Source of the DNA: a plasmid
DNA: 64,000 nt
Reading direction: 5' to 3' (one strand)
Sequence record: AP029160.1
The notes beneath the pieces are model-generated. The model was given only the letters and a program-made list of their open reading frames with translations, ran no database searches and was not told the origin of the DNA. Shown one piece after another: positions 9,762 through 37,325 of the stretch (position 1 is the first letter of the stretch; each line of letters starts with the position of its first letter). The translations under genes were made by a program, and so were the position numbers.

Positions 9762-9902
9762 TTTCTTCTCACTCTACCAAACACACTACGCTTTTTAGCG
9801 TGTGTTAAGCATTCATAAAACTAATAAGTATAAAACTAGATTCAATAATCTGAGAATAAGATAAAGATATCATAAAGTAAAGAAAAGACTAAATTAAAAT
9901 TT

Positions 9903-11733: not shown

Positions 11734-11939
11734 GTGAACCCCTTTCAAATTTAAGGAAACGGCACAGACAATAACCTTGACTTCAAAAATCAGTTTGCGC
11801 CGACTCAGAATCCAAACAAAAAACTCTTTAGTTGCGCTGCACGACTTGGCAGTCGTTTGCTTCCACACACTACGCCACAAGTGGCAAACGTATGAGAATA
11901 ATTTTATCCAATAAAAACAAATGCTTAAAATGATTTTAC

Positions 11940-16213: not shown

Positions 16214-17626
16214 CTACATTTTAATTTTTAAATTTTTTCTAAACTTATCAGACAATTTAAGGATTTCTCTGGCTCTTGTACAAGCCACATAAACTAAATT
16301 TAACTCATCTTCTTCTTTAAAAGAATAATCTCCACCGAGACAAACTTGATCCCATTCTAACCCTTTGCTTTTGTGCGCTGTACAAAGCAATACATCTGCC
16401 TCATGATCTTTAACAAGAAATGATTCAAATTTATCAAGGAAAGATAAGATATTGTGCTCATATTTTTTTATAATTTTGCAAACAGAATTAGACTCAGCAT
16501 TAAATCGAGCTACTTCAACGAATTCATTCCAATTCTGAAATTTTTTATATTCATAAAATTCTATTAGATGATTTTTTCCAGCAAATAAATAATATGCTGA
16601 CTTACAACGCAAAATAAAGTCCCCAATTCCACCACAAATTGAAATTTTCTTTCCTTCACTTGAATAATGAATTGCTAATGAAAAGACTTCTGCATTTGTT
16701 CTACACACGCAAGTAAACGGCTTTGATTCATCTAAATCTTGAACCTTAGAATCAATCTTTTCAAACCCTAATAGTTTTCTATTTTCCCCTTTCATAGCCA
16801 ATATTTTATTTGCTATCTCAGCAACAGCAGGTCCAAATCTAAAACTTTGCGTTAAACTTAGTTCACTGGCTTCAATTTCTTGCATAGCGTTTACCGCTCC
16901 ACGCCATGCATAAATCTTTTGATGATGGTCACCAACATATATTTTTCTTGTTTTTTGTTGACTTATTATGTCAAGAACAACTGGATTTGCATCTTGTGCT
17001 TCATCAAAAAGTATACAGTCTACTTCAATTTTAGCTCCTGATAATTGCCACATTTTAACATACGTATCATGATCAATCGGAAAATTAGATTCTTGACTCA
17101 CTTCCAATTGCCAAAGTTTTTTTGATTTTTCAACGATAAATTCAATTAATAATTTCTGCTCAGATGGCACAGAGGAAATATTCATAATTTCATCGATATC
17201 AACATGGCTAGTACCTATTTTTATATCACTAGAAATTTTAAAATTATTCACAGTTTTTTTGATACATGGAAGAAGTTGATAAGGATTAATAGATCTATTT
17301 GAATTTAGTCCAAGTAATTTTATTACCTCACTTTGCTTTATTTTATTCATTAATTTATCTTTATATTTGCATCTATCTATTTGCATCGCTCTTCTAGCAA
17401 GCGCGTGATATGTTATACAGTAAACATTTTTTGGAAAAGATTTGACTGCTGAAACTTGAATATCTTTATTATAAGCCAAATACAAAAAACTTTTACTTAA
17501 ATTGCTGTTTGCAATCATTTTTAATGTACTGGTCTTTCCTGTCCCAGCGAAAGCTGAAATTTTTAAATCTTCTTTTCTCGTATTGATAAAATCAATTATT
17601 TTTTCTTGCTCAATAGTAGGTTTCAT
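16214..17626 (-). CDS. superfamily-1 DNA helicase (UvrD/RecD-like, short form)
   Basis: Walker A 'AFAGTGKTSTL' and Walker B 'ILFDEAQD'. C-terminal 'LLCTAHKSKGLEWDQV...VACTRAREIL' is the typical SF1 motif V/VI region. Confidence 0.65.
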   Translation of the reverse strand: MKPTIEQEKIIDFINTRKEDLKISAFAGTGKTSTLKMIANSNLSKSFLYLAYNKDIQVSAVKSFPKNVYCITYHALARRAMQIDRCKYKDKLMNKIKQSEVIKLLGLNSNRSINPYQLLPCIKKTVNNFKISSDIKIGTSHVDIDEIMNISSVPSEQKLLIEFIVEKSKKLWQLEVSQESNFPIDHDTYVKMWQLSGAKIEVDCILFDEAQDANPVVLDIISQQKTRKIYVGDHHQKIYAWRGAVNAMQEIEASELSLTQSFRFGPAVAEIANKILAMKGENRKLLGFEKIDSKVQDLDESKPFTCVCRTNAEVFSLAIHYSSEGKKISICGGIGDFILRCKSAYYLFAGKNHLIEFYEYKKFQNWNEFVEVARFNAESNSVCKIIKKYEHNILSFLDKFESFLVKDHEADVLLCTAHKSKGLEWDQVCLGGDYSFKEEDELNLVYVACTRAREILKLSDKFRKNLKIKM

Positions 17627-17634
17627 ATGGATTC

Positions 17635-20600
17635 CTATAAATCTAAAGAAATATTTTGTTTTCTTTCTATTTTTAATTCCTTACCTTTCTCAAACTCAAT
17701 ATCATCTATTTCAAATGAAATATTCCTTGAAGAAGTGATTTCATTTTCAAATATATTATTTGAAAATTCTTCAGAAATATCGAATTTATTTTCTTTATAA
17801 TCATCTATATTCATATCTTTAAATCTGTATTCACTTTTTATGATCTCATTTTCAATTCCTATTTTATTACAGAGGATATCTATTGGTTTATAGCTCTGAT
17901 TAAATTCATTTTTAGAAGTCAGATCACATTCTGGACCATTTTCGACTTTAATTTCATTTTTGCTTAGTTCAGTTCCCAAACTTGGCTTCATTTTTGGCAA
18001 GTCAATATCTTTGAGAATATGCTCAACCGTTTTATTCTCATTTTTACGCGCAAACGAAAAATAGGATTCATAATCATTTTGCTGATTCCTTTCAATAAAT
18101 TTAGATTCTTTGATCAGTAATTTTCTTGCATCCTTAAATATTTCATTGACTTTACTCATATCTCCAATCTTTTGGTAGAGACAATTTTTAACATCTTTCT
18201 CAAAATGTTTTGTCTCTAGCCTTAAATCGAGATGAGATTTAATTGATTTATTATTTCTTTCGATATTTAATTGCATTTTCTCATCATATTCATACTTGTA
18301 TTTTACAAATTTTTGTTCAATAGATTTTGCAATTTCACTTCTAAATTCCTTATTGTTTTCTAAGTTTTTTGTAAATTCAAGAAATTTTGACTCTATCAGT
18401 TTTATATTCTCTTCCTCAGAAAAACTTTTATTCACTGTATTATTTGCTAAATTATCTATAATTTCAGTCAATAATTTTTCTCTTTGATACGGAAGTATAT
18501 TCTCTAATTTTTCAAATCCTGATTTTATTTCTAAATCCGTATTTTGTAATTCTCTAATTTTTTGAGATAATTCAAATTTTTTAGTTCCTTCATATTCGTA
18601 CGCTTTAGAAAGTCTATTATTTAGCAAATATGATTCAAATTTTTCTAAGCTAATCGTATCTAGTAAAATATTTTCTTTCTTGTCTAGTGCACTTATATTT
18701 TTATGCTCTTTTAAATTTGCAAATTCACTGTTTATAAATTTATATAATTCAAAATTTCTCTTCCCTTTTTCAAGGCTAAAAATCTCTATAAAATTATCTT
18801 TCGATACACTTTCACACTCATTTTTTAGTTTTTCATAATGGATGAATGCAGAATTTTCTGTCCCCCTTGCCTTTTCTTCAATTTGTTTAGAAAGAATTTC
18901 GTTTATTTTCTGTGGAGTATTATTTATAAATTCACTGCACATTTTTTTATACATTTGAATTAAATTAGAATCTTTTCCTTCAACAAATTGATAATACTGT
19001 TTTGCATATTCTATATTATAGCCAATCATAGTTTCTAAAGACTGAACCAAATCTTTATTTTCAGAAATAAATTTCAATATTTCTTCCTCTGTAAAATTTT
19101 CTTTTGAATACTTGTTCTTCATTTCAACTAGAATAGCTTTTCTCAACTCTGATTTTTCTATCAAGTTTGTAACTCTTGATTTAGAAATTTTATTATTTTC
19201 AAATTTCTTTTTCTCTTTAATTTCTGAATTCACATTTAAAATTTTGTTTTTCAATTTTTTTTCCTCATCATTTAAAAAATAGTCAGGAACAAATTTCAAT
19301 TGTTTTTCAGTGAGTAAATACGAGATAGGTACTTTTAATGCTTGGCTCCCCGTTTTAATTGCTAAATTCCGTTCAAATGGATCTTTATTCAGCATGATTT
19401 TAGGCAAGACTTCCTTTTTCCAATTTTCAATGTTTTGAAAATTTACTTCATCTGTTTCATAGGTAAATGACACAAAATGATCTAAAGGAACTTTATTTTT
19501 ACTTAATTCTGACTTTAATTCATCAATGCTATGACTTCTCAAATATTCATCAGGATCTTTAGTTGAAATATTTGTATAATTTAACTCTATATCATTCCCA
19601 CTAGCTAAAAAGAAACTTCTCTTTGCTGCATTCTTTCCAGCATTATCTGTATCAAATAGCAATGTAACTTCATTTGTATAGCTCTTTAGTTCATTTAAAT
19701 GCTCTTTTGTCAGTGCTGTGCCTAGAACAGCAACAACATTTTTTACTCCTGACTTGTGCAAAGCAATTTGGTCAAGATATCCTTCTACTACAATTGCTTC
19801 ACCAGCACTTTGAATGGATTCTTTAGCTTTGTCTAATCCAAATAAAATTGTTGATTTATTAAATATCTGCGTAGTTTTTGGATTTATATATTTTGAAACA
19901 CCTTTCTTTATTTCGATATCTCTATATATTCTTCCACCAAATCCGACACATTTTCCATCTGAATTATTGATAGGAATCATAATTCGATTGCGATAAAAAT
20001 CATACGATGAATTATTTTGGTTAAGTGATACTAACGAAAGCTTGATTAAATCTTTTTGGGAAATACCATTTTTCTTTGCAAATTGTTCTAACCCATAAGA
20101 ATGCGACAATCCAAATTTATATTCCCTTATTTCATCAAGAGTTAGACCCCTTTGTAAAAGATATTCAAGTGCTTCTTTCCCATTTTCTGAAAACAAATTT
20201 TCAACATAGAATTCTTGAACCTTTTCCATAATATTTAAAAGTCTTTCCTTCTCAATATTATCTTCACTCAATTTATTTATGGTTATGTTTTCTTCCGTTG
20301 GCAAATGTTCAAATAAATCAGGAGGAGGAAGTTCAAATTCATTACTAAACCCCTCCTCCATATCAAAATGAAATTCATTTGGAATCTCTTGCCCTTCTTC
20401 ATGCGTATTTATAATTATTGATTCTTCTATACTTTGAGAAGAAGATAATGTTGTTTCTTCTTCTATAGAATTGACAATCTCTGGGTCACGATTGAGTTTG
20501 ATTTCATATTTTTGATAAACAGCTCTCTGTTTTTCATATCCTTTGTATCTTGCTTTTAGATTCACTCCAGATGTTCGTTTTAAATCTTTCAGAAACCGTT

Positions 20601-23600
20601 TAGATTCTTTATCTGAAAAATCATCTTCATTTGCAATACAAATTACTTTTGCACCAGACTTTTCAGCCAATTCAAATAATCTTGATGATGTAGAAGATAT
20701 ATTTTTCCCTAAATCTTTTAAGATAATGATTGTATCTTTTGATAATTTAGTTCTTTTCTCTTCAATGCTTTCAACAAGCTTGCGAACATGTAACTCTTTT
20801 CCATCATTCAATTTAAAACCATTAACTCGTCCTGCATAACTATGGATTACCTGGTATGCACTATTTTCATATAAATCTTTTGTATGATTTAAAACAATAG
20901 ATAGGTCATCGTAAGCAAGATTTGATATAAATTTTACTCCCCCTTCATCACAGGTAAAATGAAGCAATGCAGCAGCTTGATTATTTGATAGATTTTCGCT
21001 TTCAATTCTCCTCATCACTCGCTCAAAACTTAAAATACTCTCCTTTTCATTTTTTCTTAAAATGGAATGTTGTAAAATATTCGCTTCTTCATTGTCTAAA
21101 TTCTGATAACAAAACAGCATTTTTCCATAACGATCATAAGTTAAAAACTTTAAATCCTCATGAACTAAAAGCTTTGTCATTAATGTATCTATTTTAGATA
21201 ATTCTATATTTCCTTTTGCTTCACTCAATAATGACTGATATAAAATAGTCTCATCAAATATCTGCAAATCATGTGAACTTTTAAATAGAGCATTTTGGAC
21301 AATTTCTTCATCTGATAGACAATTCTTAATTTCTTTAGTTTCATTGGGAATATCTGTTACAATATGTTCAAAATTTAGAATGTGTTCCTTTTCATTTTTA
21401 GAAATGAAAGTAGATTTTTCTAAAAATTGCTTTAATTCGAATGGAGATAAAAATTTATCACATTTTAATTTTGAAATATTTTTTTCGAAATGCTCTGCAA
21501 ATAAAGCATGGACATGATCATTACGTTCATGGATGCGTAAAATTTCAGATTCATTGGAAATACTAACTTTGAGCTCTTTTGTAAGTGATTCAGCCAATAT
21601 AGTTTCATAAAGATTTTTAATTATCTTTTGATTTTCAATAAATGAAAACTGATTCAAAGAAACTTCAGTTTTATCATTTAAGACAATATTCTTAAAACTC
21701 AAATCTGAATGAATATATTGAATTTGTGACAACTCTGGATTTTTTTCAAATATTGTATCTTTTGAATTTAAATCAAATTGAAATTGTCCATCTATCTTTA
21801 GATAGTTCTTAAAATGTTCTAAAGCTTGTCTAATCGAATCCTCATGAATTTTTAAAATTTTATCTCTTATTTCTTTCGTGGAAGTAAAATAATAAGCTGA
21901 GACATCACTTGGGGCTGCAATAGATAAAACCATTTGATTTCCATCTTTTGCTAAGACAAGATTTTTTTGATGTTTATCGTAAAAATCCATTTTATTGCTT
22001 TTTTGTATATACTTTCTTTCTTTTTGCTCCTTTATTATTTCTGTTGCTGTTAAATTTGATTTGCTTTTAAGGAGGGATTTTTCAATCGCATCTTTTGATT
22101 CGGCAAATATTTTTAACGAATGTGTGGAACGGGTAAAAACAGTGTAAATTTCCTCATGACCACAATAACTTTCAATCAGTCCAATCGTATTCTTCTTTGT
22201 AGCCCCCTGACTTGCATTAAAAGTCACCGCCCATGAATGAGACATAAAATTTAAACTGTCTAAATGAATCGTGTCTTCTGTGCCTCGTTCATACTTGATT
22301 TTAGCCGTTCTTGCTTCGTGATTAATTTCAGTAATTTTAAACATTTGTTTATTTAAACGCCCTCTATCTTTGCTATTTTTCCTCCATGACATCCAGTCAT
22401 TTTCTGCAATATTTATTTTTTGCGCTTTGAATTGAAAAATATCTTTCACATGCTCTGGTTTAACAGTAAATTTATTGCCATTTGAATCACTAACTGTAAT
22501 CGTATTGTTTATCGTATCTCTCTCTTGAATAAGATAACTCTCATTTGCTCTTAATGCTGTATTTGGATTTTCAGTGACGACAATATTTCCAATTTCGTAA
22601 TTTAGAGCATATTTTAGTTGTTTTTTACTAACTGAAACAGGAATATAAGTAGTAACTTCAGTCTGATTTTTTAAATATCCTCTTTCTAATAATCCACTTC
22701 GAATTCCATTTGTGATTTCATGAATAGAATTGTGTGTTTTAGCGACTATCAATGACTTATTCATTTCACTTTCGCTAAGAGACAAAAAATATTTGACTGC
22801 ATTTTGAATACGCCCTTCTTCTGTCTTAAATTCTTCAATTGAATTTTTAAAATGAAATACTGCTTTTTGTGCTAATTCTTTTGCCGTATTTTTATAATAA
22901 ACTGAATCTAGTTTTTGCAGATCAAACGCATTTAAATATTTAACCCCTTGAGCTAAATTTCTATTCTTTTGCCGTACGGATTCATCAAGACGAACTGTTT
23001 TGATATTCGTATAACGACTCACAAATTTTAAAAAGTGACCGGACGAAGGAGCTGATAATTGAGATATTCCTCCTACAATTATCATCCTAGCATTTTCAGC
23101 ATCAGCTCTTTTTGCAAGCTCATACCCTAATTTTGCATTGATTAAACCTGACTCATCAATTATCCATAACTTTTTAGAGTTTTGGGGGTTATCTTCTTTA
23201 ATTTTTGAAAGTACGAGACTATCAATGGTCTGAGCATTGATTCCTGTTTCGGAAGATAAAATAGATGCTGCATCCCCATTTTGAGCAAATCCGCGAACAT
23301 CATAACCAACTTTTTTTGCTTCATCGATGACAGTTTTGAGCGAGTAGGTCTTCCCTGCTCCTGCCACACCTTCCCAAATTAAATGTCTATCCTCAGATAA
23401 AAGAGTTTCTTCAATTGCATTTTTTTGTCCATTATTAAGTCCAGAAGATCTGCTGATACTTGCAATAAGATCGGTGATCAAAGCGTCTTTCTCAATTTTT
23501 TTCAGTTTTAAGTTTGAAACAATATCGAAGACCTCCTCATTCAATGATTGGATTTCATAAGAGGACAATCGAATATGAGGAGGAATTTTTTCTTCAATCA

Positions 23601-25200
23601 ATGATATGATGTTTTCTTTATTAGAAAGTTCATATTTACCTAAAATATCTTTTACTTCATGTAAAATTTTATTTTTATCTTCTAAACTAAATTTATTTTT
23701 TTCTTCAAACAATTCTTTAATTTTATCTTTATCAAGAATTCTTTCAAAGTTACCGCCTTTTTGCAAAATTTCTGCTGTTTTTTCTTCAATTTCTAATGAC
23801 TCCTTTGTAAGGTATTTCACCCCTTTTTCAACTTTAACAGTAATAAGATCTTTTTCAATTTGACTATTCAATGGATTCATCAATTCATCAAAACCATATT
23901 TCCCAAAATTATTTTGAATGTGATTCATCTTTGCGGTTTCAACATGAAATAGGACATTTCTATCGCTGGCTTGACTAAAAGAATCTTGAACAGATTCCAT
24001 TAATTTTTTATTTTTATATTCTTCTGTATAATTTAACTCCTTATCATTTGTATTAACTTTATGATTTCTATCATATTCAAAAGCTGATTCTTCTCTTATC
24101 CATCTTTTTTTCTCTTCAGCGTGATCTATTTTTTCACTTTTTTTTGCACGCTCGACTTTGACAAGATTCCTGGCAGATTTTTGATCGGTTACTCCTAATT
24201 CATTGACGAGTTGATTCCTACGCTTAGAAAAATGTTGTTTCAATTCTTCTGGAATCCCTTTTATTTCAAATGTACCATTTGTATTAACTTCAATTTCATA
24301 GCCTAACTTTTGAATCTTATGCGCTAGTTCATTTTGATAAATCATTCCAAAATATTTAGAATAAGTTCTCAAGTCATCTGCATGCAAAGCGCGCCATTCT
24401 CCATCACCACGATTGATTAAATTAAAAATAACACAATGTGTATGAAGATGAGGATCGACTTCTCTACTCATATCATGTTCAAACGTCGCTATAATTAATT
24501 TTTTTGCATTTTCAATTTCTCTTTTTGTGTTATCACCAATTCTAGTATTAGCATATTCACTTTCAATAACATCTAACGTTTTTAAAACAGCGTCTCTGTG
24601 TGCTTGTAATATTTCTCCATCCTCACGAACTAATGCCATAATAGATACAGATTTAGGCGCATTAAAGGTAAGATCATAGCCTCCCCGTCTTTCAACAGGA
24701 CGAGTGACTTTATCTAAAGCCTGAGAAAGTAAATCAATAACCTCCTCTTTTTTCTGGCCTTTTAAATCAGAGTTTTTTAACGTATTTTTGAATGCTGCTA
24801 TACATTCATTATAATCTTTTCTTTTTAATTTTGTTGGATATCTGGTGTAATGACTTACAATTTTAAATAATTTTTCCTTTTGTTCTTTTTCTATTTCATA
24901 TTTTTCAGCAATTTTTAATATACTAAATTCCAGTACGCCACGTTCCGTTTTTGTAAGAAGGGGCTCTTGATATTTTTTTGGATCAACCGCATTTGTAGCT
25001 AATATTTTTTGCCCATCAGGAGTATATCCAAAAAGTAAATTATCAAATTGCTTAAAATCTATTTTTCCATTTAATTGTAATTCCTGCGCGGATTTTCCAT
25101 GCCATTTAGAATACTCGCAGGATTCCTCATTTGTGTAGTAATTATCTTTTTTATAGTAACTTCTTCCCATACTTAGAGAAACATTTTCAATTGAGAGCAT
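17635..25200 (-). CDS. giant multidomain conjugative relaxase: MobF/TrwC-type relaxase + SF1 helicase + DnaG-like primase + ~650-aa K/E-rich C-terminal tail
   Basis: N-terminal 'MLSIENVSLSMGRSYYKKDNYYTNE...WHGKSAQELQLNGKIDFKQFDNLLFG' parallels the TrwC N-terminus with the paired catalytic Tyr (SYY, NYY). The 3-His motif 'HDMSREVDPHLHTHCVIFN' lies near 24430-24465. Helicase Walker A 'GVAGAGKTY' lies near 23345-23371. Primase/Toprim residues 'VVEGYLDQIALHKSG' and 'LLFDTDNAGKNAAKRS' lie near 19600-20220. Confidence 0.8.
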   Translation of the reverse strand: MLSIENVSLSMGRSYYKKDNYYTNEESCEYSKWHGKSAQELQLNGKIDFKQFDNLLFGYTPDGQKILATNAVDPKKYQEPLLTKTERGVLEFSILKIAEKYEIEKEQKEKLFKIVSHYTRYPTKLKRKDYNECIAAFKNTLKNSDLKGQKKEEVIDLLSQALDKVTRPVERRGGYDLTFNAPKSVSIMALVREDGEILQAHRDAVLKTLDVIESEYANTRIGDNTKREIENAKKLIIATFEHDMSREVDPHLHTHCVIFNLINRGDGEWRALHADDLRTYSKYFGMIYQNELAHKIQKLGYEIEVNTNGTFEIKGIPEELKQHFSKRRNQLVNELGVTDQKSARNLVKVERAKKSEKIDHAEEKKRWIREESAFEYDRNHKVNTNDKELNYTEEYKNKKLMESVQDSFSQASDRNVLFHVETAKMNHIQNNFGKYGFDELMNPLNSQIEKDLITVKVEKGVKYLTKESLEIEEKTAEILQKGGNFERILDKDKIKELFEEKNKFSLEDKNKILHEVKDILGKYELSNKENIISLIEEKIPPHIRLSSYEIQSLNEEVFDIVSNLKLKKIEKDALITDLIASISRSSGLNNGQKNAIEETLLSEDRHLIWEGVAGAGKTYSLKTVIDEAKKVGYDVRGFAQNGDAASILSSETGINAQTIDSLVLSKIKEDNPQNSKKLWIIDESGLINAKLGYELAKRADAENARMIIVGGISQLSAPSSGHFLKFVSRYTNIKTVRLDESVRQKNRNLAQGVKYLNAFDLQKLDSVYYKNTAKELAQKAVFHFKNSIEEFKTEEGRIQNAVKYFLSLSESEMNKSLIVAKTHNSIHEITNGIRSGLLERGYLKNQTEVTTYIPVSVSKKQLKYALNYEIGNIVVTENPNTALRANESYLIQERDTINNTITVSDSNGNKFTVKPEHVKDIFQFKAQKINIAENDWMSWRKNSKDRGRLNKQMFKITEINHEARTAKIKYERGTEDTIHLDSLNFMSHSWAVTFNASQGATKKNTIGLIESYCGHEEIYTVFTRSTHSLKIFAESKDAIEKSLLKSKSNLTATEIIKEQKERKYIQKSNKMDFYDKHQKNLVLAKDGNQMVLSIAAPSDVSAYYFTSTKEIRDKILKIHEDSIRQALEHFKNYLKIDGQFQFDLNSKDTIFEKNPELSQIQYIHSDLSFKNIVLNDKTEVSLNQFSFIENQKIIKNLYETILAESLTKELKVSISNESEILRIHERNDHVHALFAEHFEKNISKLKCDKFLSPFELKQFLEKSTFISKNEKEHILNFEHIVTDIPNETKEIKNCLSDEEIVQNALFKSSHDLQIFDETILYQSLLSEAKGNIELSKIDTLMTKLLVHEDLKFLTYDRYGKMLFCYQNLDNEEANILQHSILRKNEKESILSFERVMRRIESENLSNNQAAALLHFTCDEGGVKFISNLAYDDLSIVLNHTKDLYENSAYQVIHSYAGRVNGFKLNDGKELHVRKLVESIEEKRTKLSKDTIIILKDLGKNISSTSSRLFELAEKSGAKVICIANEDDFSDKESKRFLKDLKRTSGVNLKARYKGYEKQRAVYQKYEIKLNRDPEIVNSIEEETTLSSSQSIEESIIINTHEEGQEIPNEFHFDMEEGFSNEFELPPPDLFEHLPTEENITINKLSEDNIEKERLLNIMEKVQEFYVENLFSENGKEALEYLLQRGLTLDEIREYKFGLSHSYGLEQFAKKNGISQKDLIKLSLVSLNQNNSSYDFYRNRIMIPINNSDGKCVGFGGRIYRDIEIKKGVSKYINPKTTQIFNKSTILFGLDKAKESIQSAGEAIVVEGYLDQIALHKSGVKNVVAVLGTALTKEHLNELKSYTNEVTLLFDTDNAGKNAAKRSFFLASGNDIELNYTNISTKDPDEYLRSHSIDELKSELSKNKVPLDHFVSFTYETDEVNFQNIENWKKEVLPKIMLNKDPFERNLAIKTGSQALKVPISYLLTEKQLKFVPDYFLNDEEKKLKNKILNVNSEIKEKKKFENNKISKSRVTNLIEKSELRKAILVEMKNKYSKENFTEEEILKFISENKDLVQSLETMIGYNIEYAKQYYQFVEGKDSNLIQMYKKMCSEFINNTPQKINEILSKQIEEKARGTENSAFIHYEKLKNECESVSKDNFIEIFSLEKGKRNFELYKFINSEFANLKEHKNISALDKKENILLDTISLEKFESYLLNNRLSKAYEYEGTKKFELSQKIRELQNTDLEIKSGFEKLENILPYQREKLLTEIIDNLANNTVNKSFSEEENIKLIESKFLEFTKNLENNKEFRSEIAKSIEQKFVKYKYEYDEKMQLNIERNNKSIKSHLDLRLETKHFEKDVKNCLYQKIGDMSKVNEIFKDARKLLIKESKFIERNQQNDYESYFSFARKNENKTVEHILKDIDLPKMKPSLGTELSKNEIKVENGPECDLTSKNEFNQSYKPIDILCNKIGIENEIIKSEYRFKDMNIDDYKENKFDISEEFSNNIFENEITSSRNISFEIDDIEFEKGKELKIERKQNISLDL

Positions 25201-25282: not shown

Positions 25283-25287
25283 ACTTT

Positions 25288-27669
25288 TTAATGCAAATTA
25301 ATGGTATTCTCATTTTCTTCTTGAGTGTGAATTTGTTCTTTCTCGTCTTTGCCTATATCTTGTAGAGGAGATTTAAAATAAATTGGAATGGATTTAAACT
25401 GTATTTCTTCCTCTTCTTTAGGTTGATGAATCTCATTGTTTAGTTCTTCTTTTGAATTTTGGTTACTTATCCTCAAATTTGGATTTCCTAATCCTCCTTC
25501 CTTTTCTTCATTTGTTTTATTCTGATTTTTTAAACTATATTGAACAATATCCTTCTTATCATTTTTTGAATTTGATTCGATTTCATCCATACTAATTTTT
25601 GGAAATTGAATCGTAAATTCAATAGAATCATAGTTTACGTGAATTAACTTTGTTTTTTCGTTAATATACAAAGCATATAATGTTTCGCTAATTTTTGTTT
25701 TGATTGATTTTGTCGCTCCAAACTTTTCTAATATTTCTTTTGCAACTAGATCAAGATTTTCTTTATCGATAGGCTTTTTCAAATAAATTTTTACAGCACT
25801 ATCAATTAAAGACTTTAATGAAGCTGAAAACTCTTGTAGTTGAGATTTTTGAAGTTCATTTTCAAGGTTAGATATCTTTTCTTGTTTTTCCTTTTCCTTG
25901 TTTGCTATCATCTCTTTTGACTCATAGGGTTTTAAATCAACAAAATCTAACCATGTTTTTTCAGTCACGAATGAAATGCAGCCTTCGTTTTTCTTTTGTA
26001 GGGAAGCATATTTGAAGATAACTTTAGTAGGGTTAAAGCGCGCTAGCTTAAGAAATGCATGATTGTCTTTTAGAGCTTGAATTTGAGAAGGAGTCACACT
26101 GTCTACTTGTCTAATTCGCTGTGATAAATTTGTATGCGCATGCCCTCCTACTGAAGTGGATGAGTCTAGCTCTATAATTTCAGATCGTCCCATCCGTTCG
26201 CTAAATATCTCAGCTTCTTTTCTACTATTTGACGCAAACACGATAATGTTTTGCAATCCCTGGAAAATGCTTTGAGCCATCTCACGGCCATAAATAATTT
26301 CAAGCTGATGGTACGATTGAAAACCGATAACCATTTTTGTTTTAAATCTTCTTCCTTTATCAAATACAAGTGGAAGAGTTGGAAGGTTACCAACCGTTGA
26401 AATTTCATCGCAATAAAGGCTAATCCTCTTTAAATTTTCTTTATTAATATCACGATTAAAACTCGCTGACGTAACTATATCGAACCATAGTCTATGCAAT
26501 GGCTTTGCATCTTCCAAATTAATGGAATCATCAATTATAAAAATCCACGAATCATCATCATTATTATTTACCCAGTTTGTGAGAGAAAATTCTTCTAATT
26601 TTATATTCTCTTCTTTTTCTCTTTCATAGACATGATGATTGAGATATTTTATAAAATTAACATTCATGAAAGCTGAAGCAATTACACCAGCGCTTTGTCC
26701 ACTGGCTTTTTTTCCTAGATACTGTTTTGAAAGTTCTTTATTATCAAGTAATAAATTATATAAATCTTCTTCTGAATAGTTAACAATTTGCCAGAGCTCT
26801 TCTTGCGTTTTTGCAATGCGAAGAGCTGCTGCCATCACTTCACGGCCAGTTTTATCAAAGAATTTGTTACTATTTGAGGATTCTTTAATTTCAATTAATG
26901 CATTAGCTAGAAATTTTGGGGGCAGATTTTCACACCAAAAAGACCATTTTTCTGCTCTCTTATCGTAGAGGGACATAATATGATCCCCTTTTTTGCCATG
27001 CTTTGCAAAAAATTCACCTCTTGGATCAATAATTAAAACTTTATTCCCAAATTTACGTTCTTGCACTAATTGCTCATCCATTGCATTTGTTTTACCTGTC
27101 GCAGAAGCGCCGCACATCCCAAAATGTAAACTTGCTATTTTATCAGGAATTTGAATTTTAGAAGTTGAGATTTTTAGATCATGATCTGTAAATTCTATAT
27201 CATTTCCCTTATTTCTTACATCTGCTTTAATTTCATTTTTTAACTCATCAGGATCTACATATTTTAACTCATCATTTCGTTCTGTTTTTCCTTGTTTAAA
27301 CTCAAATCCAATTTTTTTTGTAATATAAATTGCTCCAATTAAGCATAAAGTAAATCCTATGAAAAAATTTAAGATAAACAAATCTGTTTTATTTTTATTT
27401 TGCTCCCAATATTCAGAAATGATTAAATATTTATTCTTATCTTCAATTGTTGGGTTCAAAAAATCAATTTGAGAATTTAAGTAAAACGTTATCTTTTTCC
27501 AAACCAAATCTAAATACCATGATATTCCACCCTCAAAATTTAAATGAATCATTAAAAATGTAAGTAAAAATCCACCAATGATCGCAATTAATAAATATGT
27601 AAGAAATTCTTTAAAAAATTTATTCATGAAATTAGAAGTAATTTGTAATCCATAATTAGAACTTTTCAT
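25288..27669 (-). CDS. virD4: type IV coupling protein (VirD4/TraD/TraG family)
   Basis: Two N-terminal TM helices. Walker A 'GMCGASATGKTNAMD'. 793 aa. Sits directly upstream of the relaxase. Confidence 0.7.
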   Translation of the reverse strand: MKSSNYGLQITSNFMNKFFKEFLTYLLIAIIGGFLLTFLMIHLNFEGGISWYLDLVWKKITFYLNSQIDFLNPTIEDKNKYLIISEYWEQNKNKTDLFILNFFIGFTLCLIGAIYITKKIGFEFKQGKTERNDELKYVDPDELKNEIKADVRNKGNDIEFTDHDLKISTSKIQIPDKIASLHFGMCGASATGKTNAMDEQLVQERKFGNKVLIIDPRGEFFAKHGKKGDHIMSLYDKRAEKWSFWCENLPPKFLANALIEIKESSNSNKFFDKTGREVMAAALRIAKTQEELWQIVNYSEEDLYNLLLDNKELSKQYLGKKASGQSAGVIASAFMNVNFIKYLNHHVYEREKEENIKLEEFSLTNWVNNNDDDSWIFIIDDSINLEDAKPLHRLWFDIVTSASFNRDINKENLKRISLYCDEISTVGNLPTLPLVFDKGRRFKTKMVIGFQSYHQLEIIYGREMAQSIFQGLQNIIVFASNSRKEAEIFSERMGRSEIIELDSSTSVGGHAHTNLSQRIRQVDSVTPSQIQALKDNHAFLKLARFNPTKVIFKYASLQKKNEGCISFVTEKTWLDFVDLKPYESKEMIANKEKEKQEKISNLENELQKSQLQEFSASLKSLIDSAVKIYLKKPIDKENLDLVAKEILEKFGATKSIKTKISETLYALYINEKTKLIHVNYDSIEFTIQFPKISMDEIESNSKNDKKDIVQYSLKNQNKTNEEKEGGLGNPNLRISNQNSKEELNNEIHQPKEEEEIQFKSIPIYFKSPLQDIGKDEKEQIHTQEENENTINLH

Positions 27670-28383: not shown

Positions 28384-29172
28384 TTATGAACATCTATGTG
28401 GATAGAATTGTTTATACGTTGTCCAAGCAGTAAATCCCTGTCGATAAAGCACGAGCCTTGCACATTTTGCGTTATTTCTTACGTCAAATAAGTCCTTCCG
28501 ACTCATTTGACATTGTTTCAGCCAAATATCATTTATTTGAAAAATACCTGTATCAAATGTTTTATTCCTATTAAAATTCTGAGCTCTAGGATTAAAAGAG
28601 GATTCGAGCTTAGCAATGCAATACATCACTGGAATTTCTCTTTCAGAAAATCCATGTAACTGCATAAAAGCTGAAAAAGATTTAAATAACTCAGAATTCA
28701 CTCTGATTTTCTTAACAGTATTTTTCTTGATATAATTTTCTGAATCGTATGCATTCCCTAAAAGATCTCTAACCTCAAACTTTAAATTTCCATCAATTCC
28801 TCCTATTTTTTGACCCATAAATACCTTACTATTTCTCCCAACATAAAACTTATGAATTCCTTTATAAACAGTAAAAAATCCTTCTGATTGAATTACAATA
28901 ACTCCTTCTTTTTCTAGGTAACCCGAAACAATTACTTTTCCATTAGCAGCGGCATAAACCGTTTTATCTTTAGATGAAATTAATGTATAACTTTTGAAAT
29001 CATCAGAATTAAATTTTTTCCAACCATATTTTTCTATGATTTTACCTGATATTATAGGATAAATTATATTAGGATTAAATTCAGTTCCATGTTTATAATT
29101 ATTAACAGCTAATGCTGTATTAAAATCTAATAAAAAAATTAAAATAAAAAACAAGTTTATATTTAATTTCAT
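28384..29172 (-). CDS. secreted lytic transglycosylase-like (VirB1-like) protein with an N-terminal beta-rich module
   Basis: Signal peptide 'NINLFFILIFLLDFNTALA'. The C-terminal 'FDTGIFQINDIWLKQC' resembles the SLT/lysozyme-like catalytic region. The N-terminal half ('VYAAANGKVIVSGY...VIVIQSEGFFTVYKGI') resembles an M23/lipoyl-type barrel. Confidence 0.45.
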   Translation of the reverse strand: MKLNINLFFILIFLLDFNTALAVNNYKHGTEFNPNIIYPIISGKIIEKYGWKKFNSDDFKSYTLISSKDKTVYAAANGKVIVSGYLEKEGVIVIQSEGFFTVYKGIHKFYVGRNSKVFMGQKIGGIDGNLKFEVRDLLGNAYDSENYIKKNTVKKIRVNSELFKSFSAFMQLHGFSEREIPVMYCIAKLESSFNPRAQNFNRNKTFDTGIFQINDIWLKQCQMSRKDLFDVRNNAKCARLVLYRQGFTAWTTYKQFYPHRCS

Positions 29173-29196
29173 TTTAATTTCCTAAAATTATTTTCT

Positions 29197-30429
29197 TTAA
29201 TTTGTTAGTAAATTCCAAGTTGTAGATGTGTCAACAAAAAATATTTGTACGATAGCGCCTGGTGAAATTGTTATTTCCGTTCCACTCCGATTTATACTGT
29301 CACTTAATCTTGTCGCTATTGAATTTACTGAACTCGCAAGGGCTTGCCGTACTTGATTTGCAACTGTGGGATCAACGGTAATTCCTGTTTGTGCAACTGT
29401 TGTTGTTAAAGTTCCGAGGACATATGTTGATAGAAATGTTCCTGCTGTAGCAATAAGGAGTTGCCAATTTGCTGGATCGTATATTTTACCTGAAAGTCCA
29501 TTGTCTCCCAAAATGTCTTTTACTATTGCTTTGCAAGGGACAGGTGGGGAATCATCTCTTGTATTGACGCATTTATCTATTAAAATTTCGACTCTTCTAT
29601 TGGATTTATTTAATTGAGCTTGACCTACAAACGTTACATTATTTGGAAATTTTTGTTCTGTAGATCCAAAAGCAATTAAACTTGTATCTAGTTTTTCACC
29701 ATTCGTAACTGTTAATTTGTCTGGCAGAAGTGCGTAAACTCTTGTTCCTGCTTTAAACATTTGCCCAAGCCCTGCTATTTGTTCTTTTCCTGATAAAGTC
29801 GAAAGACTTTCGGCGCTCATAGAAGCTAACCGTGCCAATTTGCTTTTTGGAATTCCTTTATTTTGAGTCTCTGTTGATACGGTTGGAATATGCGACGAAG
29901 ATGGTCCAAATTCAGCTTTTGATGGAGCATCAACTTTTCTTACAACAGCATCTTTGATTATTCCTGGAGATGAAACATAATTCACAAAATTCTGAGCATC
30001 CTTTATCTTAGAAGAATCAGTATGATTTTTTTCCCCAACTTCCCCTGCTGCTACAGGTAAATTATTTTGCTCTTCTTCAGGTGCTTTACCAGCCAAAGCG
30101 ATATCCCATGGAGATTTAGAAGATGAAGAGGGGTCTCTTCGATTCGTTGGAGTCTGTAATTGTTTATCTTTAGACTCTTTGTTTCTTGCTTCAAGCATTT
30201 GTGTTTGTGCATCTGCTACTTTAGCTTCACTTAATTCTACTGGCTTTAACGCAGAAGCCCTTAATTTTTGAGACAAAGAAGCACTCTCAGCTTCTTTATT
30301 TATTTTTTCATGTGTTTCATTTTTATCGTCTTTAGACATATTTATGATAAATGCAGAGCCAAAGACAAACACCCCTAAAGCTAATCCCATTATCTGAAAT
30401 GTATTTTTTTTATTTAGAGCCATTATCAA
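29197..30429 (-). CDS. VirB10/TrbI-like inner-membrane-to-outer-membrane bridging protein
   Basis: N-terminal TM 'IMGLALGVFVFGSAFIINM', a Pro/Ser-rich linker, then a C-terminal beta-rich domain. The position after the VirB9-like gene supports the call. Confidence 0.45.
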   Translation of the reverse strand: MIMALNKKNTFQIMGLALGVFVFGSAFIINMSKDDKNETHEKINKEAESASLSQKLRASALKPVELSEAKVADAQTQMLEARNKESKDKQLQTPTNRRDPSSSSKSPWDIALAGKAPEEEQNNLPVAAGEVGEKNHTDSSKIKDAQNFVNYVSSPGIIKDAVVRKVDAPSKAEFGPSSSHIPTVSTETQNKGIPKSKLARLASMSAESLSTLSGKEQIAGLGQMFKAGTRVYALLPDKLTVTNGEKLDTSLIAFGSTEQKFPNNVTFVGQAQLNKSNRRVEILIDKCVNTRDDSPPVPCKAIVKDILGDNGLSGKIYDPANWQLLIATAGTFLSTYVLGTLTTTVAQTGITVDPTVANQVRQALASSVNSIATRLSDSINRSGTEITISPGAIVQIFFVDTSTTWNLLTN

Positions 30430-31309
30430 CCCCTTTTATCCTTTTGTATCCCTTTTTATCCAATAGTTCTGCAATTGAATTAACACTATTTTTATTGTTT
30501 AGATCATTATTAAGTTCATTCTTTTCTTTTAGCGAATTTTCTAGTTTAATTTCACTTTGAAAACTGTTTGAAAGTGTTTTAATATCTTGATCCTTATTCT
30601 TAACAATCATGGTATCTTTTTTAAGCGGCTTAAATTTTTTTCTCATCAATTCATCTAGATCTTTTTTTTCACTTTCTTCTCCTTTATTTAATATTTTGTC
30701 CATACTTTTTGAATCATTAATATTTTCAATAAACTCCTTTTTTATTTTTTTATTCTTTTTTTCAATCGAATTTTTCTGTCCAATTCTCTTTGGAGAAAAG
30801 GAACTCATATCATATGCATAATTTATTTCTTCAGGTGGGCTTTCAATTAATTTAACAACACTATAGGGATTAATATCAGTAAATGTTACAGCAATTGTAT
30901 AATAATTTGAATCAATCAACTGACAAACTACTGTTGTTTGATCGATATCCTCAAAATCCTTTAAATTTGCCCCTATGACTTTTAAAACGACTGAATAAAA
31001 ATTTACTTCTTTTTGATCAGCATTTATTTTAACTGAACTAGCTTTTTCTGTTTTTAAAGCAGCATGATCACTAAAGCAACTACTCACTTGTCTTGGAAAA
31101 ATTAGAATTGTTGGTCTTGATGGGGTAATTCTAACCACAGGCGCTCGATTTTTATCGAGCATCATTGTAACTGTAGGCAGTTTGCTATCATATTTTCCCT
31201 GTGGAATAAAAACTCCTTCAATTTCATCACAAAACCCATTATTTGAACAAAAGAAATACAAAATTGAAAGTAATATGATATTCCAATAAAATATTTTACT
31301 TATTTTCAT
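30410..31309 (-). CDS. VirB9-like secreted protein with K/E-rich C-terminus
   Basis: Signal peptide, then a beta-rich N-domain. The position between the VirB8-like and VirB10-like genes supports the call. Confidence 0.4.
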   Translation of the reverse strand: MKISKIFYWNIILLSILYFFCSNNGFCDEIEGVFIPQGKYDSKLPTVTMMLDKNRAPVVRITPSRPTILIFPRQVSSCFSDHAALKTEKASSVKINADQKEVNFYSVVLKVIGANLKDFEDIDQTTVVCQLIDSNYYTIAVTFTDINPYSVVKLIESPPEEINYAYDMSSFSPKRIGQKNSIEKKNKKIKKEFIENINDSKSMDKILNKGEESEKKDLDELMRKKFKPLKKDTMIVKNKDQDIKTLSNSFQSEIKLENSLKEKNELNNDLNNKNSVNSIAELLDKKGYKRIKGVDNGSK

Positions 31310-31937: not shown

Positions 31938-31938
31938 A

Positions 31939-33063: not shown

Positions 33064-33086
33064 TTTCCCCTCATTTTTATTTATTA

Positions 33087-34082: not shown

Positions 34083-34145
34083 AATTTTCCTTCTTTTCTA
34101 ATTTATTATTTAATTTTAAATCTTATTTTTTAATGATTGAATCAG

Positions 34146-36875: not shown

Positions 36876-36913
36876 AAGTTATTTCCTCTCAATTTTAATT
36901 GTTAATTTTTGCC

Positions 36914-37288: not shown

Positions 37289-37325
37289 AATTATCCTTAT
37301 TTTATTATTAAATTTTATCTTTTAA

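Follow-up and report, generated by a model that had tools for sequence, protein, structure and literature searches.

A conserved relaxase-helicase-primase fusion with an apparently dead second relaxase/helicase module in Silvanigrellaceae bacteria

Why would a plasmid-like element encode the nicking, unwinding and priming of DNA in one very long polypeptide? The question is raised by an ORF of Pigmentibacter ruber (Silvanigrellaceae), located on a plasmid-like replicon of 29% G+C (sequence record AP029160.1), of which a stretch of 64,000 nucleotides, here called the window, was analysed. The original prediction, made from the DNA letters, had proposed a single ORF of 2521 aa combining a MobF nickase, an SF1 helicase, a DnaG-type primase with Toprim and a long tail. 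The ORF is indeed uninterrupted on the minus strand, and the three enzymatic parts were recovered as TrwC, AAA_30, DNAG_N and Toprim_2 matches. From N- to C-terminus, the protein is predicted to comprise relaxase, helicase, pseudo-relaxase/pseudo-helicase, primase and tail:

17635..25200, minus strand: whole ORF, ATG start, 2521 aa, ~292 kDa, no interruption
24091..25200, minus strand: MOBF (TrwC-type) relaxase domain, aa 1-370 (Pfam TrwC, NCBIfam MobF, PDB TrwC 1OMH)
25135..25161, minus strand: catalytic tyrosine motif SYYKKDNYY (Y15/Y16, Y21/Y22), aligned with TrwC SYYEDGADDYY (Y18, Y26)
24436..24477, minus strand: metal-binding histidine triad HDMSREVDPHLHTH (H242, H253, H255), invariant in the family
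22051..23439, minus strand: SF1B (RecD/TraI-type) helicase, aa 588-1050 (AAA_30, TraI_hel_assoc_N, TraI_2B, motifs)
23347-23370, minus strand: helicase Walker A, GVAGAGKT (motif position, invariant residues)
23146-23166, minus strand: helicase Walker B, WIIDESG (motif position, invariant residues)
20476..22023, minus strand: apparently catalytically dead second relaxase/helicase copy, aa 1060-1575 (hhalign, HMMER, AlphaFold, Foldseek)
20281..20475, minus strand: acidic linker of variable length, aa 1576-1640 (16 Glu in 65 residues)
19351..20280, minus strand: DnaG-type RNA-polymerase core and Toprim, aa 1641-1950 (DNAG_N, Toprim_2, TIGR01391, 4E2K), containing the primase motifs YRNRIMIPI, GFGGR and KYINPK
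19771-19791, minus strand: Toprim motif VVEGYLD, aligned with S. aureus and Aquifex DnaG
19636-19656, minus strand: Toprim motif FDTDNAG, aligned with the same two proteins
19543-19560, minus strand: Toprim motif KDPDEY, likewise aligned
17986..19350, minus strand: lineage-specific all-helical tail, aa 1951-2405 (AlphaFold model, alignment)
18097-18126, minus strand: conserved island of the tail, F..x.RK[IL]L[IVM]KESKF, aa ~2355-2368
17638..17985, minus strand: predicted disordered acidic C-terminal segment, aa 2406-2521 (pI 4.5, pLDDT 25-40)

A database search retrieved 8 further full-length homologues (2424-2535 aa) from independent assemblies, two of them on separate records of one Fluviispira assembly, and every one is a single ORF. 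With a close Silvanigrella relative the named genera are three (Pigmentibacter, Fluviispira and Silvanigrella), a taxon range that rests on source names only. Although overall identity within the family is as low as 28-46%, domain order is the same in 9/9 full-length proteins, and the family alignment keeps sequence across all junctions. Unusual length is the one thing that speaks for an assembly or frameshift error joining separate relaxase and primase genes; since the single-ORF state is common to all the other full-length proteins, and conservation runs through the junctions of nine independent ones, such an artefact is excluded for practical purposes, and the proposal of one gene rather than two or more holds. 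Each segment is under purifying selection in the P0008/P0009 pair, with dN/dS of 0.10 for the relaxase, 0.15 for each of the helicase, the dead module and the primase, and 0.34 for the tail. In PLSDB the gene had no megablast match, and by tblastn no plasmid covered at least 80% of the protein. Judged by its sequence, the ORF is a genuine conserved plasmid-transfer protein of Silvanigrellaceae bacteria.

The N-terminal half is readily assigned. The relaxase domain matches Pfam TrwC (aa 12-370, E 2e-77, 260.8 bits, cut-off 25), NCBIfam MobF NF041492 (251.5 bits, cut-off 100), TIGR02686 (231.8 bits, cut-off 145.5) and the PDB structure of TrwC, 1OMH (E 2e-47), relative to which it carries a helical insertion of ~100 aa (aa ~70-170). 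The four tyrosines Y15, Y16, Y21 and Y22 are invariant in the family (4/4), and the histidine triad HDMSREVDPHLHTH aligns with HETSRERDPQLHTH of TrwC. In the helicase, AAA_30 covers aa 588-758 (E 7e-41), TraI_hel_assoc_N is matched and TraI_2B weakly so (aa 854-930; Pfam); motif III (VGGISQL) and motifs V/VI (NASQGAT and FTRSTH) accompany the Walker motifs. By these signatures the MOBF relaxase looks active, with its nicking domain intact, as does the SF1B helicase. The equivalog cut-offs of F-type TraI were missed (TIGR02760, 305.7 vs 929.85; PRK13709, 267.8 vs 2212), and by profile score the protein is a relative, not an orthologue, of F TraI.

The stretch between helicase and primase (aa 1050-1640) had been left unaccounted for in the original prediction; it contains a degenerate second relaxase/helicase module. 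Profile-profile comparison by hhalign of aa 1051-1640 against aa 1-1050 gave a probability of 97.6% and E 3e-12 over 468 collinear columns, with cross-controls at E 0.1-0.6. A HMMER profile of the module aligns collinearly with the N-terminal ends of further MOBF relaxases (E 1e-9 to 1e-10), and its AlphaFold model (pLDDT 86.9, pTM 0.81) retrieves, by Foldseek, F TraI 5N8O (E 6e-6), RecD2 (E 9e-6) and the TrwC relaxase (E 2e-4 to 6e-4). The homology is visible by these three approaches only: a profile search of PDB sequences gave a chance match, and pattern scans of genome contigs, with the module alignment or with a single sequence, confirmed no relatives. Within the module, a relaxase-fold domain (~1070-1290) is joined through a connector to a RecD-like 1A domain (~1400-1560). 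The tyrosine segment is missing, the position of the histidine triad reads KNPELSQIQYIHSD, and the Walker A and B positions have become SNLAYDDLS and IILKDLG, respectively. Alignment and model together identify aa 1060-1575 as a predicted relaxase-fold plus RecD-1A duplicate that has lost all catalytic residues; in the P0008/P0009 pair its dN/dS equals that of the primase. In F TraI, a vestigial helicase domain without activity binds single-stranded DNA; by comparison, the dead module would most likely be an extra single-strand DNA-binding platform, and it may substitute for the zinc ribbon of DnaG, which is missing here (see below). We know of no description of a dead relaxase fold following the active helicase in a relaxase. 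The acidic linker that comes next shows 23-38% gaps in homologues.

Primase identity is supported by DNAG_N (aa 1664-1793, E 2e-31, 108.9 bits, cut-off 26), Toprim_2 (aa 1803-1887, E 9e-20, 71.3 bits, cut-off 22.1), dnaG TIGR01391 (aa 1642-1950, model positions 95-409 of 414) and the DnaG core of S. aureus, 4E2K (E 2e-42). Both motifs quoted in the original prediction were located in the translation, VVEGYLDQ at aa 1804-1811 and LFDTDNAGKN at aa 1848-1857. All acidic Toprim residues (E1806, D1810, D1850, D1852, D1882 and D1884) are kept and family-invariant, as are the basic-ridge motifs RNRIM.P, GFGGR and KY.N. A Toprim nuclease or topoisomerase was considered as an identity and rejected on account of the DNAG_N subdomain and 35-41% identity to DnaG. 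The flanking domains of DnaG are another matter: there is no zf-CHC2 match and no cysteine in aa 1576-1660, CHC2 is absent from the Pfam lists of all family members, and neither DnaB_bind nor DnaG_DnaB_bind was matched by Pfam in the P. ruber protein (one homologue has a DnaB_bind match, E 3.5e-5). To our knowledge, DnaG and T7 gp4 without the zinc-binding domain are unable to start primers alone. The nearest relatives of the core are cellular DnaG proteins (35-42% identity), including products of chromosomal dnaG genes, one of which adjoins rpoD. In a comparison with the MOBF-fused primase modules of databases, the latter are only 27-31% identical to the core (53-86 bits) and cellular DnaG proteins 35-41% (157-173 bits), which suggests that a dnaG core was captured independently. 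A tblastn search of 72,556 plasmids (PLSDB) with the core gave 259 records, and the matches listed were mostly annotated dnaG; Escherichia, in which IncI/IncP plasmids abound, was absent among the top organisms listed. By this indirect comparison, an origin from Sog/TraC-type primases seems unlikely.

The C-terminal tail had been described as ~650 aa long, K/E-rich, low in complexity and coiled-coil-like, and as new to the TrwC/TraI family. Its length is nearer ~570 aa, since the DnaG core reaches ~aa 1950, and K/E enrichment is real but mild (K+E 28.7% vs 22.7% for the whole protein, in a 29% G+C replicon). The helical character stands, the AlphaFold model showing many short helices and one of 62 residues (helices pLDDT ~70-90, overall pTM 0.38); low complexity for the most part does not, sequence entropy being mostly normal. 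The chain ends in a disordered acidic segment, within which a small island, A.K.G[IL] (aa ~2443-2449), is conserved. Novelty is borne out: only family members were found among 1.84 billion (1.84e9) representatives searched, Pfam gave no match, and Foldseek found no PDB fold below E = 3.8, a result whose weight the model pTM of 0.38 limits. Self-BLAST detected no internal repeats. The tail evolves faster than the other segments, with 12-49% identity among homologues, and our best guess for its role is the docking of partner proteins.

The surroundings of the gene are those of a putative conjugative system, by gene content and by the presence of a candidate oriT:

25288..27669, minus strand: type IV coupling protein (TrwB/TraD family; TrwB_AAD_bind E 1e-52), immediately upstream, same orientation
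28384..38075, minus strand: upstream transfer-apparatus genes (M23/lysozyme, TrbI/VirB10-like, large proteins without family match)
16214..17626, minus strand: UvrD/PcrA-like helicase gene, 470 aa, start 8 nt past the relaxase stop codon
11836..12140, minus strand: candidate oriT, ~5.8 kb downstream of the relaxase gene
11944-12139, minus strand: operator array of the candidate oriT, 4-5 palindromes GTGAATCA-N4-TGATTCAC (repeat search)
11836-11893, minus strand: G+C-rich core of the candidate oriT, with hairpin GCCAC-TT-GTGGC, then GTAGTGTGT/GG (the slash marking the putative nick), then AAGCAAACG and a second hairpin
11863..11875, minus strand: nick-region motif GCGTAGTGTGTGG, 13/13 bases equal to the R100 oriT nick region
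9781..9789, minus strand: second GTAGTGTGT site, in the hairpin ACACACGCT-AAAA-AGCGTAGTGTGT

The order of coupling protein and relaxase recurs in Fluviispira and metagenomic relatives. The upstream genes, among whose large products without family match is a 909-aa putative VirB4-like ATPase, are syntenic in L001, L002 and L007, and synteny is kept on two separate Fluviispira records (68.8-kb and 79.5-kb) as well as on metagenomic contigs. The UvrD/PcrA-like gene, probably co-translated with the relaxase, adjoins it also in L001, L007 and the P0007 contig.

The candidate oriT and Fluviispira record AP019370 share 79% identity across 266 nt. In a three-way alignment, a 23-nt block is invariant and both hairpin stems show compensatory changes, and the three plasmid lineages that share this block have relaxases only 52-67% identical. 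It is on the compensatory changes, not on folding energy, that the hairpins are proposed, energies at the nick-like sites being only modestly better than those of shuffles (z -1.4 to -2.7). The nick-region motif is unique in the window and was matched in 0/100 shuffles, even with one mismatch; the R100 sequence was checked in NC_002134.1, literature searches for this precise string having given no result. If cleavage follows the pattern of F and R100, the nick would fall between T11865 and G11864 of the minus strand. In F, cleavage by TraI leaves GGT on the enzyme (PMC3074121). The nick-region sequence GCCACTTGTGGCGTAGTGTGTGGAAGC is the predicted cleavage substrate of the relaxase domain, and in an oligonucleotide of the oriT site, TTTGCCACTTGTGGCGTAGTGTGTGGAAGC, cleavage is predicted after GTGT. 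On the same strand, the second GTAGTGTGT site (hairpin oligonucleotide sequence ACACACGCTAAAAAGCGTAGTGTGTTTGG) is found ~2.08 kb to the 3' side of the putative nick, or ~2 kb inside the leading region, and the Fluviispira record has a syntenic counterpart (L001 25231-25243).

We consider it reasonably probable that the ORF encodes the conjugative relaxase of this plasmid-like element and that its tethered primase primes the transferred strand in the recipient. The N-terminal domain would nick the minus strand at the candidate oriT (GTAGTGTGT/GG, ~11864/11865) and stay linked to the 5' end via Tyr15/16; the adjacent coupling protein would then pass the relaxase-DNA complex to the type IV secretion system. 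With its helicase unwinding 5'->3', the protein would, in the manner of TrwC and F TraI, pilot the strand into the recipient, where the tethered primase would make the first RNA primers for complementary-strand synthesis. Recipient priming is important in this replicon: nearly all genes between 6602 and 43031 have the transferred strand as their sense strand, and until its complement has been made no plasmid gene can be transcribed. Delivery of the primase into the recipient, which the original prediction had put forward as covalent, is plausible by analogy, and as an idea it has precedents in MOBQ relaxase-primases, in Rickettsia TraA(Ti) and in the many MOBF-Toprim fusions of databases. Several observations count against the mechanism: a 292-kDa substrate would need unfolding and passage through the secretion channel, the primase core comes without a CHC2 domain and a recognisable DnaB-binding domain and scores below the TIGR01391 cut-off, the nick position is assigned only from F and R100, and the transfer-apparatus proteins have diverged so far that the majority of them fit no family.

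Why a primase should be attached to a relaxase may be explained otherwise. It could serve mainly the vegetative replication of the plasmid in the donor or host, its fusion to the relaxase being an accident of gene organisation and a separate primase product possibly being made. In RSF1010, the MobA-linked primase RepB' also primes at oriV. This precedent (RSF1010/R1162; review PMC12857230) speaks for such an account. In addition, none of the window's ORFs was recognised as a replication initiator, and a helicase and a primase in one chain resemble replicative primase-helicases. We find this account unlikely, however: ahead of the primase no ATG, GTG or TTG was found at a suitable distance from a Shine-Dalgarno sequence, the one in-frame ATG that has an AGGA is spaced 16 nt from it and encodes a Met also conserved in cellular DnaG, and shorter MOBF-DnaG fusions reside in transfer operons beside coupling proteins and a NikA-like accessory protein. 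Moreover, the linked primase of R1162 is the very form needed for conjugal mobilisation, according to the same review (PMC12857230, citing Henderson & Meyer 1999).

A different doubt is whether the DnaG-like module primes at all or has become a DNA-binding or structural domain, or a Toprim nuclease. The zinc ribbon missing from every family member and a dnaG equivalog score under the threshold (TIGR01391, 251.5 bits vs a cut-off of 283.6) would fit such a change of function, but we judge it improbable, as catalytic acidic residues and basic-ridge motifs are all retained, primase dN/dS is 0.15, the DNAG_N RNA-polymerase subdomain is specific to primases and not to nucleases or topoisomerases, and at the low overall identity seen in the family the active site of a decayed domain would have been lost. 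The dead module, the tail or both might also be recipient-directed effector or anti-defence domains, which would make the protein 'polyvalent' as Iyer et al. 2017 use the term, and more than a DNA-processing enzyme. According to that work, polyvalent proteins of conjugative elements frequently combine a Toprim primase with effector domains (PMC5512222); as a class they bring together, in a single polypeptide that is transferred, unrelated domains for effector or early functions, a processing peptidase often being among them. The P. ruber protein is multidomain and carries a Toprim primase, and the fast evolution of its tail is of a kind often seen in conflict-related domains. Yet searches of tail and middle segment revealed no domain of effector, peptidase, methylase or anti-restriction type, and the middle segment clearly derives from a relaxase/helicase; an effector function seems very improbable to us. 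Returning to recipient priming by the tethered primase, a bolder elaboration, to which we give a rather small chance, is that the dead relaxase/RecD-1A module reads single-stranded DNA sequence-specifically, replaces the zinc ribbon and places the primase at the second hairpin and GTAGTGTGT site (9781-9789). If so, the first 2 kb of the incoming strand would be duplex and transcribable at once, a point of importance when it is the sense strand that is transferred; the relaxase would have its own site-directed priming device, and a pseudo-enzyme domain would act as a primase specificity factor.

How does this protein compare with known systems? With TrwC (R388; 165 bits) and TraI (F/R1/R100; 154 bits for F TraI) it shares the HUH relaxase with YY-x-YY and histidine triad, the SF1B helicase with a 2B-like subdomain and the adjacent coupling-protein gene, and with R100 the candidate nick sequence over 13 nt; it is longer by 770-1550 aa, having in addition the DnaG primase core and an orphan tail of 570 aa. 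Its vestigial part, unlike that of F TraI, comes after the active helicase, and a dead relaxase fold forms part of it. MobA-RepB' of RSF1010/R1162 likewise unites relaxase and primase in one polypeptide and follows the functional logic proposed for the P. ruber protein, but it is MOBQ, not MOBF, and has no helicase, dead duplicate or tail; RepB' is not known to be a DnaG/Toprim enzyme. On some MOBQ relaxases the primase domain is required for transfer (review PMC12857230). TraA(Ti) of Rickettsia bellii comprises relaxase, helicase and C-terminal Toprim primase in one protein, for which the same two primase roles were proposed and whose primase domain was called unique to rickettsial relaxases (PMC4564193). 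It differs in having a MobA/MobL-type rather than TrwC-type nickase and in being much shorter, and a second relaxase fold or long tail was not reported. Its uniqueness is contradicted by the Pigmentibacter-type family and by MOBF-Toprim fusions in databases, as recognised from their domain matches. MOBF relaxases with Toprim_2, DUF3991 or DNAG_N are common there: metagenomic TrwC + AAA_30 + DNAG_N/Toprim_2 proteins of 1400-1530 aa, cyanobacterial MobF with DUF3991/Toprim_2 and DUF3854 of up to ~2440 aa, and a Legionella TraI with Toprim_3. As some reach 2300-2440 aa, the 900-1750 aa originally given for TrwC/TraI relaxase-helicases is no true ceiling. These fusions share the order relaxase, helicase, Toprim primase and the location in transfer operons, but none has the dead duplicate or the tail, and our literature searches found no paper describing them. 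Sog (IncI1) and TraC1 (RP4) are also Toprim primases, yet separate proteins unlinked to the relaxase; according to part of PMC5512222, they are transferred and prime in the recipient, and Toprim primases have been fused many times into proteins of conjugative elements, although relaxase-primase fusions of the Pigmentibacter type are not listed in that part. TraI and other relaxases are known to enter the recipient (PMC3074121). Compared with bacterial DnaG, the P. ruber module has the RNA-polymerase core and Toprim with all catalytic residues but neither a zinc-binding nor a recognisable DnaB-binding domain, and is embedded in a relaxase.

The conversion of single strand to double strand in the recipient is among the less well-understood steps of conjugation, and complementary-strand synthesis sets the speed at which a plasmid is expressed in its new host. 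MOBF relaxase-primase fusions are widespread in databases and were not found in the conjugation literature searched; the Pigmentibacter-type family would unite nicking, unwinding and priming in one piloted polypeptide. With the incoming strand being the sense strand of nearly all replicon genes, the element would offer a clean system in which to ask whether donor-supplied priming is needed. The dead relaxase fold, maintained as strongly as the primase, would be a concrete case of a pseudo-enzyme domain kept within a relaxase, and it may reveal the way in which DnaG cores lacking a zinc ribbon, which relaxase fusions commonly contain, locate their template.

We find on the minus strand, at 17635-25200 of an A+T-rich replicon (G+C ~29%), a single unbroken ORF with an ATG start, encoding a protein of 2521 aa (~292 kDa). 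An entry from Pigmentibacter ruber is identical to it, and eight more full-length relatives (2424-2535 aa, 28-68% identity) share its Pfam content. Two of the eight belong to the Fluviispira sanaruensis assembly, on separate records of 68.8 and 79.5 kb, and Silvanigrella paludirubra has a protein close to P0007, a Silvanigrella-like homologue (shared 90% cluster); all named sources of family members are Silvanigrellaceae. Given such relatives, including those on the two Fluviispira records, the reading of the ORF as a frameshift or assembly artefact, last of the four rivals weighed here, is excluded for practical purposes and its probability negligible.

Pfam and NCBIfam searches recovered the MobF nickase, SF1 helicase and DnaG-like primase of the original prediction. 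The Pfam matches are:

aa 12-370: TrwC, E 2e-77
aa 588-758: AAA_30, E 7e-41, overlapped by TraI_hel_assoc_N
aa 854-930: TraI_2B, a weak match after AAA_30
aa 1664-1793: DNAG_N, E 2e-31
aa 1803-1887: Toprim_2, E 9e-20

NCBIfam assigns aa 1-370 to MobF (251.5 bits, cut-off 100), and the best solved-structure alignments of the N-terminus are with TrwC (165 bits) and F TraI (154 bits). SYYKKDNYY aligns with SYYEDGADDYY of TrwC (Y18 and Y26), and HDMSREVDPHLHTH with the TrwC histidine triad; relative to TrwC, ~100 aa are inserted between the tyrosine and histidine blocks. The helicase retains both Walker motifs (A, GVAGAGKT; B, WIIDESG) as well as the later SF1 motifs, with motif residues invariant across the family alignment. 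In the primase, aa 1642-1950 align with positions 95-409 of the NCBIfam dnaG model (414 positions), and the segment matches the RNA-polymerase domain of S. aureus DnaG (E 2e-42). All motifs are conserved: RNRIM.P, GFGGR, KY.N, the Toprim glutamate (VVEGYLD), DxD (FDTDNAG) and DPDE. There is no zinc ribbon: Pfam gives no zf-CHC2 match, the preceding linker is devoid of cysteines and the dnaG model is joined only at position 95. The closest database relatives of the core are ordinary cellular primases (35-42% identity), the one examined being chromosomal and adjoining rpoD. Since the primases of shorter MOBF-primase fusions (27-31% identity, 53-86 bits) are far more distant than cellular DnaG (157-173 bits), this family seems to have taken up a dnaG core independently of them. 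A Sog/TraC-type primase seems unlikely from a tblastn comparison of the core with 72,556 plasmids, which matched only 259 records, those listed being mostly annotated dnaG.

The domain list first proposed was incomplete, for it missed a second relaxase/helicase copy at aa ~1050-1640. This segment has no family match in Pfam or NCBIfam searches and is 40-84% conserved among close family members. Profile-profile comparison of its family alignment with aa 1-1050 gave a single collinear alignment of 468 columns, pairing aa 1070-1546 with aa 151-733 (probability 97.6%, E 3e-12); crosswise controls were negative (E 0.1-0.6). Its HMMER profile collinearly matches MOBF relaxases, cyanobacterial ones among them, over their N-terminal relaxase-helicase part (E ~1e-9 to 1e-10, within the small set searched), and none of these foreign proteins was found to carry a second copy. 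A confident AlphaFold model built from eight sequences (pLDDT 86.9, pTM 0.81) was matched by Foldseek to F TraI 5N8O (E 6e-6), to RecD2 (E 9e-6) and, at E 2e-4 to 3e-3, to several structures of TrwC and pKM101 relaxase domains. The catalytic motifs of the two copies compare as follows:

His triad: active copy HDMSREVDPHLHTH; second copy KNPELSQIQYIHSD
Walker A: active copy GVAGAGKT; second copy SNLAYDDLS
Walker B: active copy IIDESG; second copy IILKDLG

With the tyrosine-bearing N-terminal segment absent and the other catalytic motifs all replaced, the segment is a dead relaxase fold followed by a dead RecD-like 1A domain. It is nonetheless kept by selection: in the close pair P0008/P0009, two full-length homologues, its dN/dS is 0.15, the same as in primase and helicase. 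By HMMER, foreign relaxases score slightly higher against its profile than does the N-terminus of the protein itself, and it would have arisen either by internal duplication or through the capture of a second relaxase gene. Along the P0009 and P0008 genes (L002, Fluviispira record AP019369, 10001-17275, and L006 3001-10275) synonymous divergence varies strongly, with dS 1.45 in the linker and helicase part and 0.2-0.6 elsewhere, which suggests a recombination mosaic inside the relaxase gene.

Because the DnaG core reaches ~aa 1950, the tail measures ~570 aa, not ~650 aa as first estimated. Its description as K/E-rich, low-complexity and coiled-coil-like stands in part: K+E amount to 28.7% (22.7% in the whole protein) and the model is all-helical up to ~aa 2405, with one helix of 62 residues (local confidence moderate, global poor; pLDDT 68, pTM 0.38), but sequence entropy is near normal, no internal repeats were found and the final ~116 residues are predicted to be disordered (acidic, pI 4.5). 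Identity among relatives is low (12-49%), with conserved islands at aa ~2355-2368 (F..x.RK[IL]L[IVM]KESKF) and ~2443-2449 (A.K.G[IL]). That such a tail was undescribed is confirmed, with no Pfam family, no Foldseek match for the model of pTM 0.38, and only family members and fragments in a profile search of 1.84 billion representatives. Its evolution is relaxed yet constrained (dN/dS 0.34, P0008/P0009).

The surroundings of the gene include the following features:

14-4455, plus: Tn-type module (TniB fragment, TniQ, Cache-domain fragment, periplasmic binding protein, serine resolvase) at the window start
4717-6442, plus: AbiEi/AbiEii toxin-antitoxin (abortive infection) pair
9781-9789, minus: second GTAGTGTGT site, inside a hairpin, 2.08 kb 3' of the putative nick
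11836-12140, minus: candidate oriT, operators and G+C-rich core (L001, Fluviispira record AP019370, 23135-23486; L007, third lineage, 25203-25557)
16214-17626, minus: short UvrD/PcrA-like helicase gene (470 aa), starting 8 nt past the relaxase stop codon
38831-43031, minus: genes for two large proteins with leucine-rich repeats (821 aa and 548 aa), close to the transfer genes on their upstream side

A TrwB/TraD-type coupling-protein gene directly precedes the relaxase gene; the DNA further upstream encodes an M23/lysozyme protein, a TrbI/VirB10-like protein and several large products with no family match. The UvrD/PcrA-like gene adjoins the relaxase in three relatives and is missing in the P0008/P0009 lineage. 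Gene order is kept in Fluviispira records and metagenomic contigs, and the other plasmid-like genes in the window are ParM-like, ParA-like, DUF932, AbiE and Tn-type (TniB/TniQ/resolvase). Putative mating-pair genes (29197-38075, minus, especially 34146-36875) are extremely divergent; the 909-, 331-, 374- and 299-aa products match nothing in Pfam, NCBIfam or PDB sequences, yet the 909-aa one shows a hydrophobic segment at its N-terminus together with Walker motifs A (GLPGNGKS) and B (FFYCIDE), as expected of a VirB4-like ATPase. In AP019369, a resolvase, transposase, TniB, TniQ and Cache/MCP set resembling the Tn-type module adjoins the relaxase. The replicon carries together an actin-like (ParM/Alp) gene and a ParA-type ATPase gene (13553-14629 and 60728-62496, minus), and none of the genes in the window was recognised as a replication initiator. 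The leucine-rich-repeat cargo, unusual for a bacterial plasmid, hints at interaction with eukaryotic hosts.

The candidate oriT emerged from comparing intergenic DNA of the window with the Fluviispira locus: a 256-nt spacer of the window (11881-12136) is 79% identical over its full length. It carries four to five palindromic operators, GTGAATCA-N4-TGATTCAC, and is bordered by a G+C-rich core, which on the minus strand reads CGTTTGCCAC-TT-GTGGCGTAGTGTGTGGAAGCAAACG and then a second hairpin. GCGTAGTGTGTGG agrees with the R100 nick region at 13/13 positions (a 50-mer spanning that region matches NC_002134.1 at 100% identity, next to the SLT gene); this 13-mer is single in the window and absent from 100 shuffles even allowing one mismatch. 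The third lineage, with a relaxase 52% identical, keeps the 23-nt block GGCGTAGTGTGTGGAAGCAAACG intact, so that it is invariant in three plasmid lineages; there the upstream stem shifts from GCCAC/GTGGC to GCCGC/GCGGC, the downstream stem change is likewise compensatory and the operator repeats are entirely different. Such a pattern would be expected for a relaxase recognition hairpin and nick site flanked by accessory-protein sites. Cleavage by F TraI leaves GGT on the enzyme, that is GTGT/GG (PMC3074121); by analogy, the nick would fall on the minus strand between T11865 and G11864, so the DUF932 region would enter first and the transfer genes last, and almost every gene in 6602-43031 would have its sense strand transferred. 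The second GTAGTGTGT site has a Fluviispira counterpart by position (L001 25231-25243), after the DUF932 gene, with diverged flanks; possible roles are a further site of nicking or termination, or a signal for initiation on single-stranded DNA. On the P0007 contig the 'leading' block with DUF932 is in divergent orientation, upstream of a small gene, coupling protein and relaxase, an R388-like layout, so family members differ in where the Dtr operon stands with respect to oriT.

Sequence comparison establishes the domain architecture and active-site conservation. From MOBF biology, the relaxase would nick at oriT and attach covalently via a tyrosine (as TrwC/TraI), the coupling protein would recruit the relaxase-DNA complex, the helicase would unwind 5'->3' and the relaxase would enter the recipient (relaxase entry, PMC3074121), where the fused primase would start complementary-strand synthesis. 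Priming of this kind has been shown for Sog and TraC1 (PMC5512222) and for the MobA-linked primase of R1162 (PMC12857230). A fused primase would be especially useful here because an incoming sense strand cannot be transcribed. Foremost among the rivals, a role of the primase in vegetative replication is unlikely. The weak point of priming in the recipient is the missing zinc ribbon, in place of which the dead relaxase/helicase module may supply template binding; that the primase is inactive, the second rival, we consider doubtful, and that the extra segments are effector domains, the third, slightly more doubtful still.

Relaxase-primase fusion is already known from RSF1010/R1162 (MOBQ), and a relaxase-helicase-Toprim arrangement has been described in Rickettsia TraA(Ti) (PMC4564193). 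MOBF relaxases with Toprim modules are numerous in databases; among them are metagenomic proteins of ~1500 aa that combine TrwC, AAA_30 and DNAG_N and lie in transfer operons, and cyanobacterial MOBF-Toprim proteins of up to ~2440 aa. A 2025 review names a helicase under MOBF and a primase under MOBQ alone (PMC12857230), and our literature searches found nothing on MOBF-DnaG fusions. What is particular to the present family is a primase core that, judged by its closest relatives, is freshly derived from cellular-type DnaG, together with a dead relaxase/helicase duplicate kept by selection, an orphan tail and a very divergent transfer apparatus.
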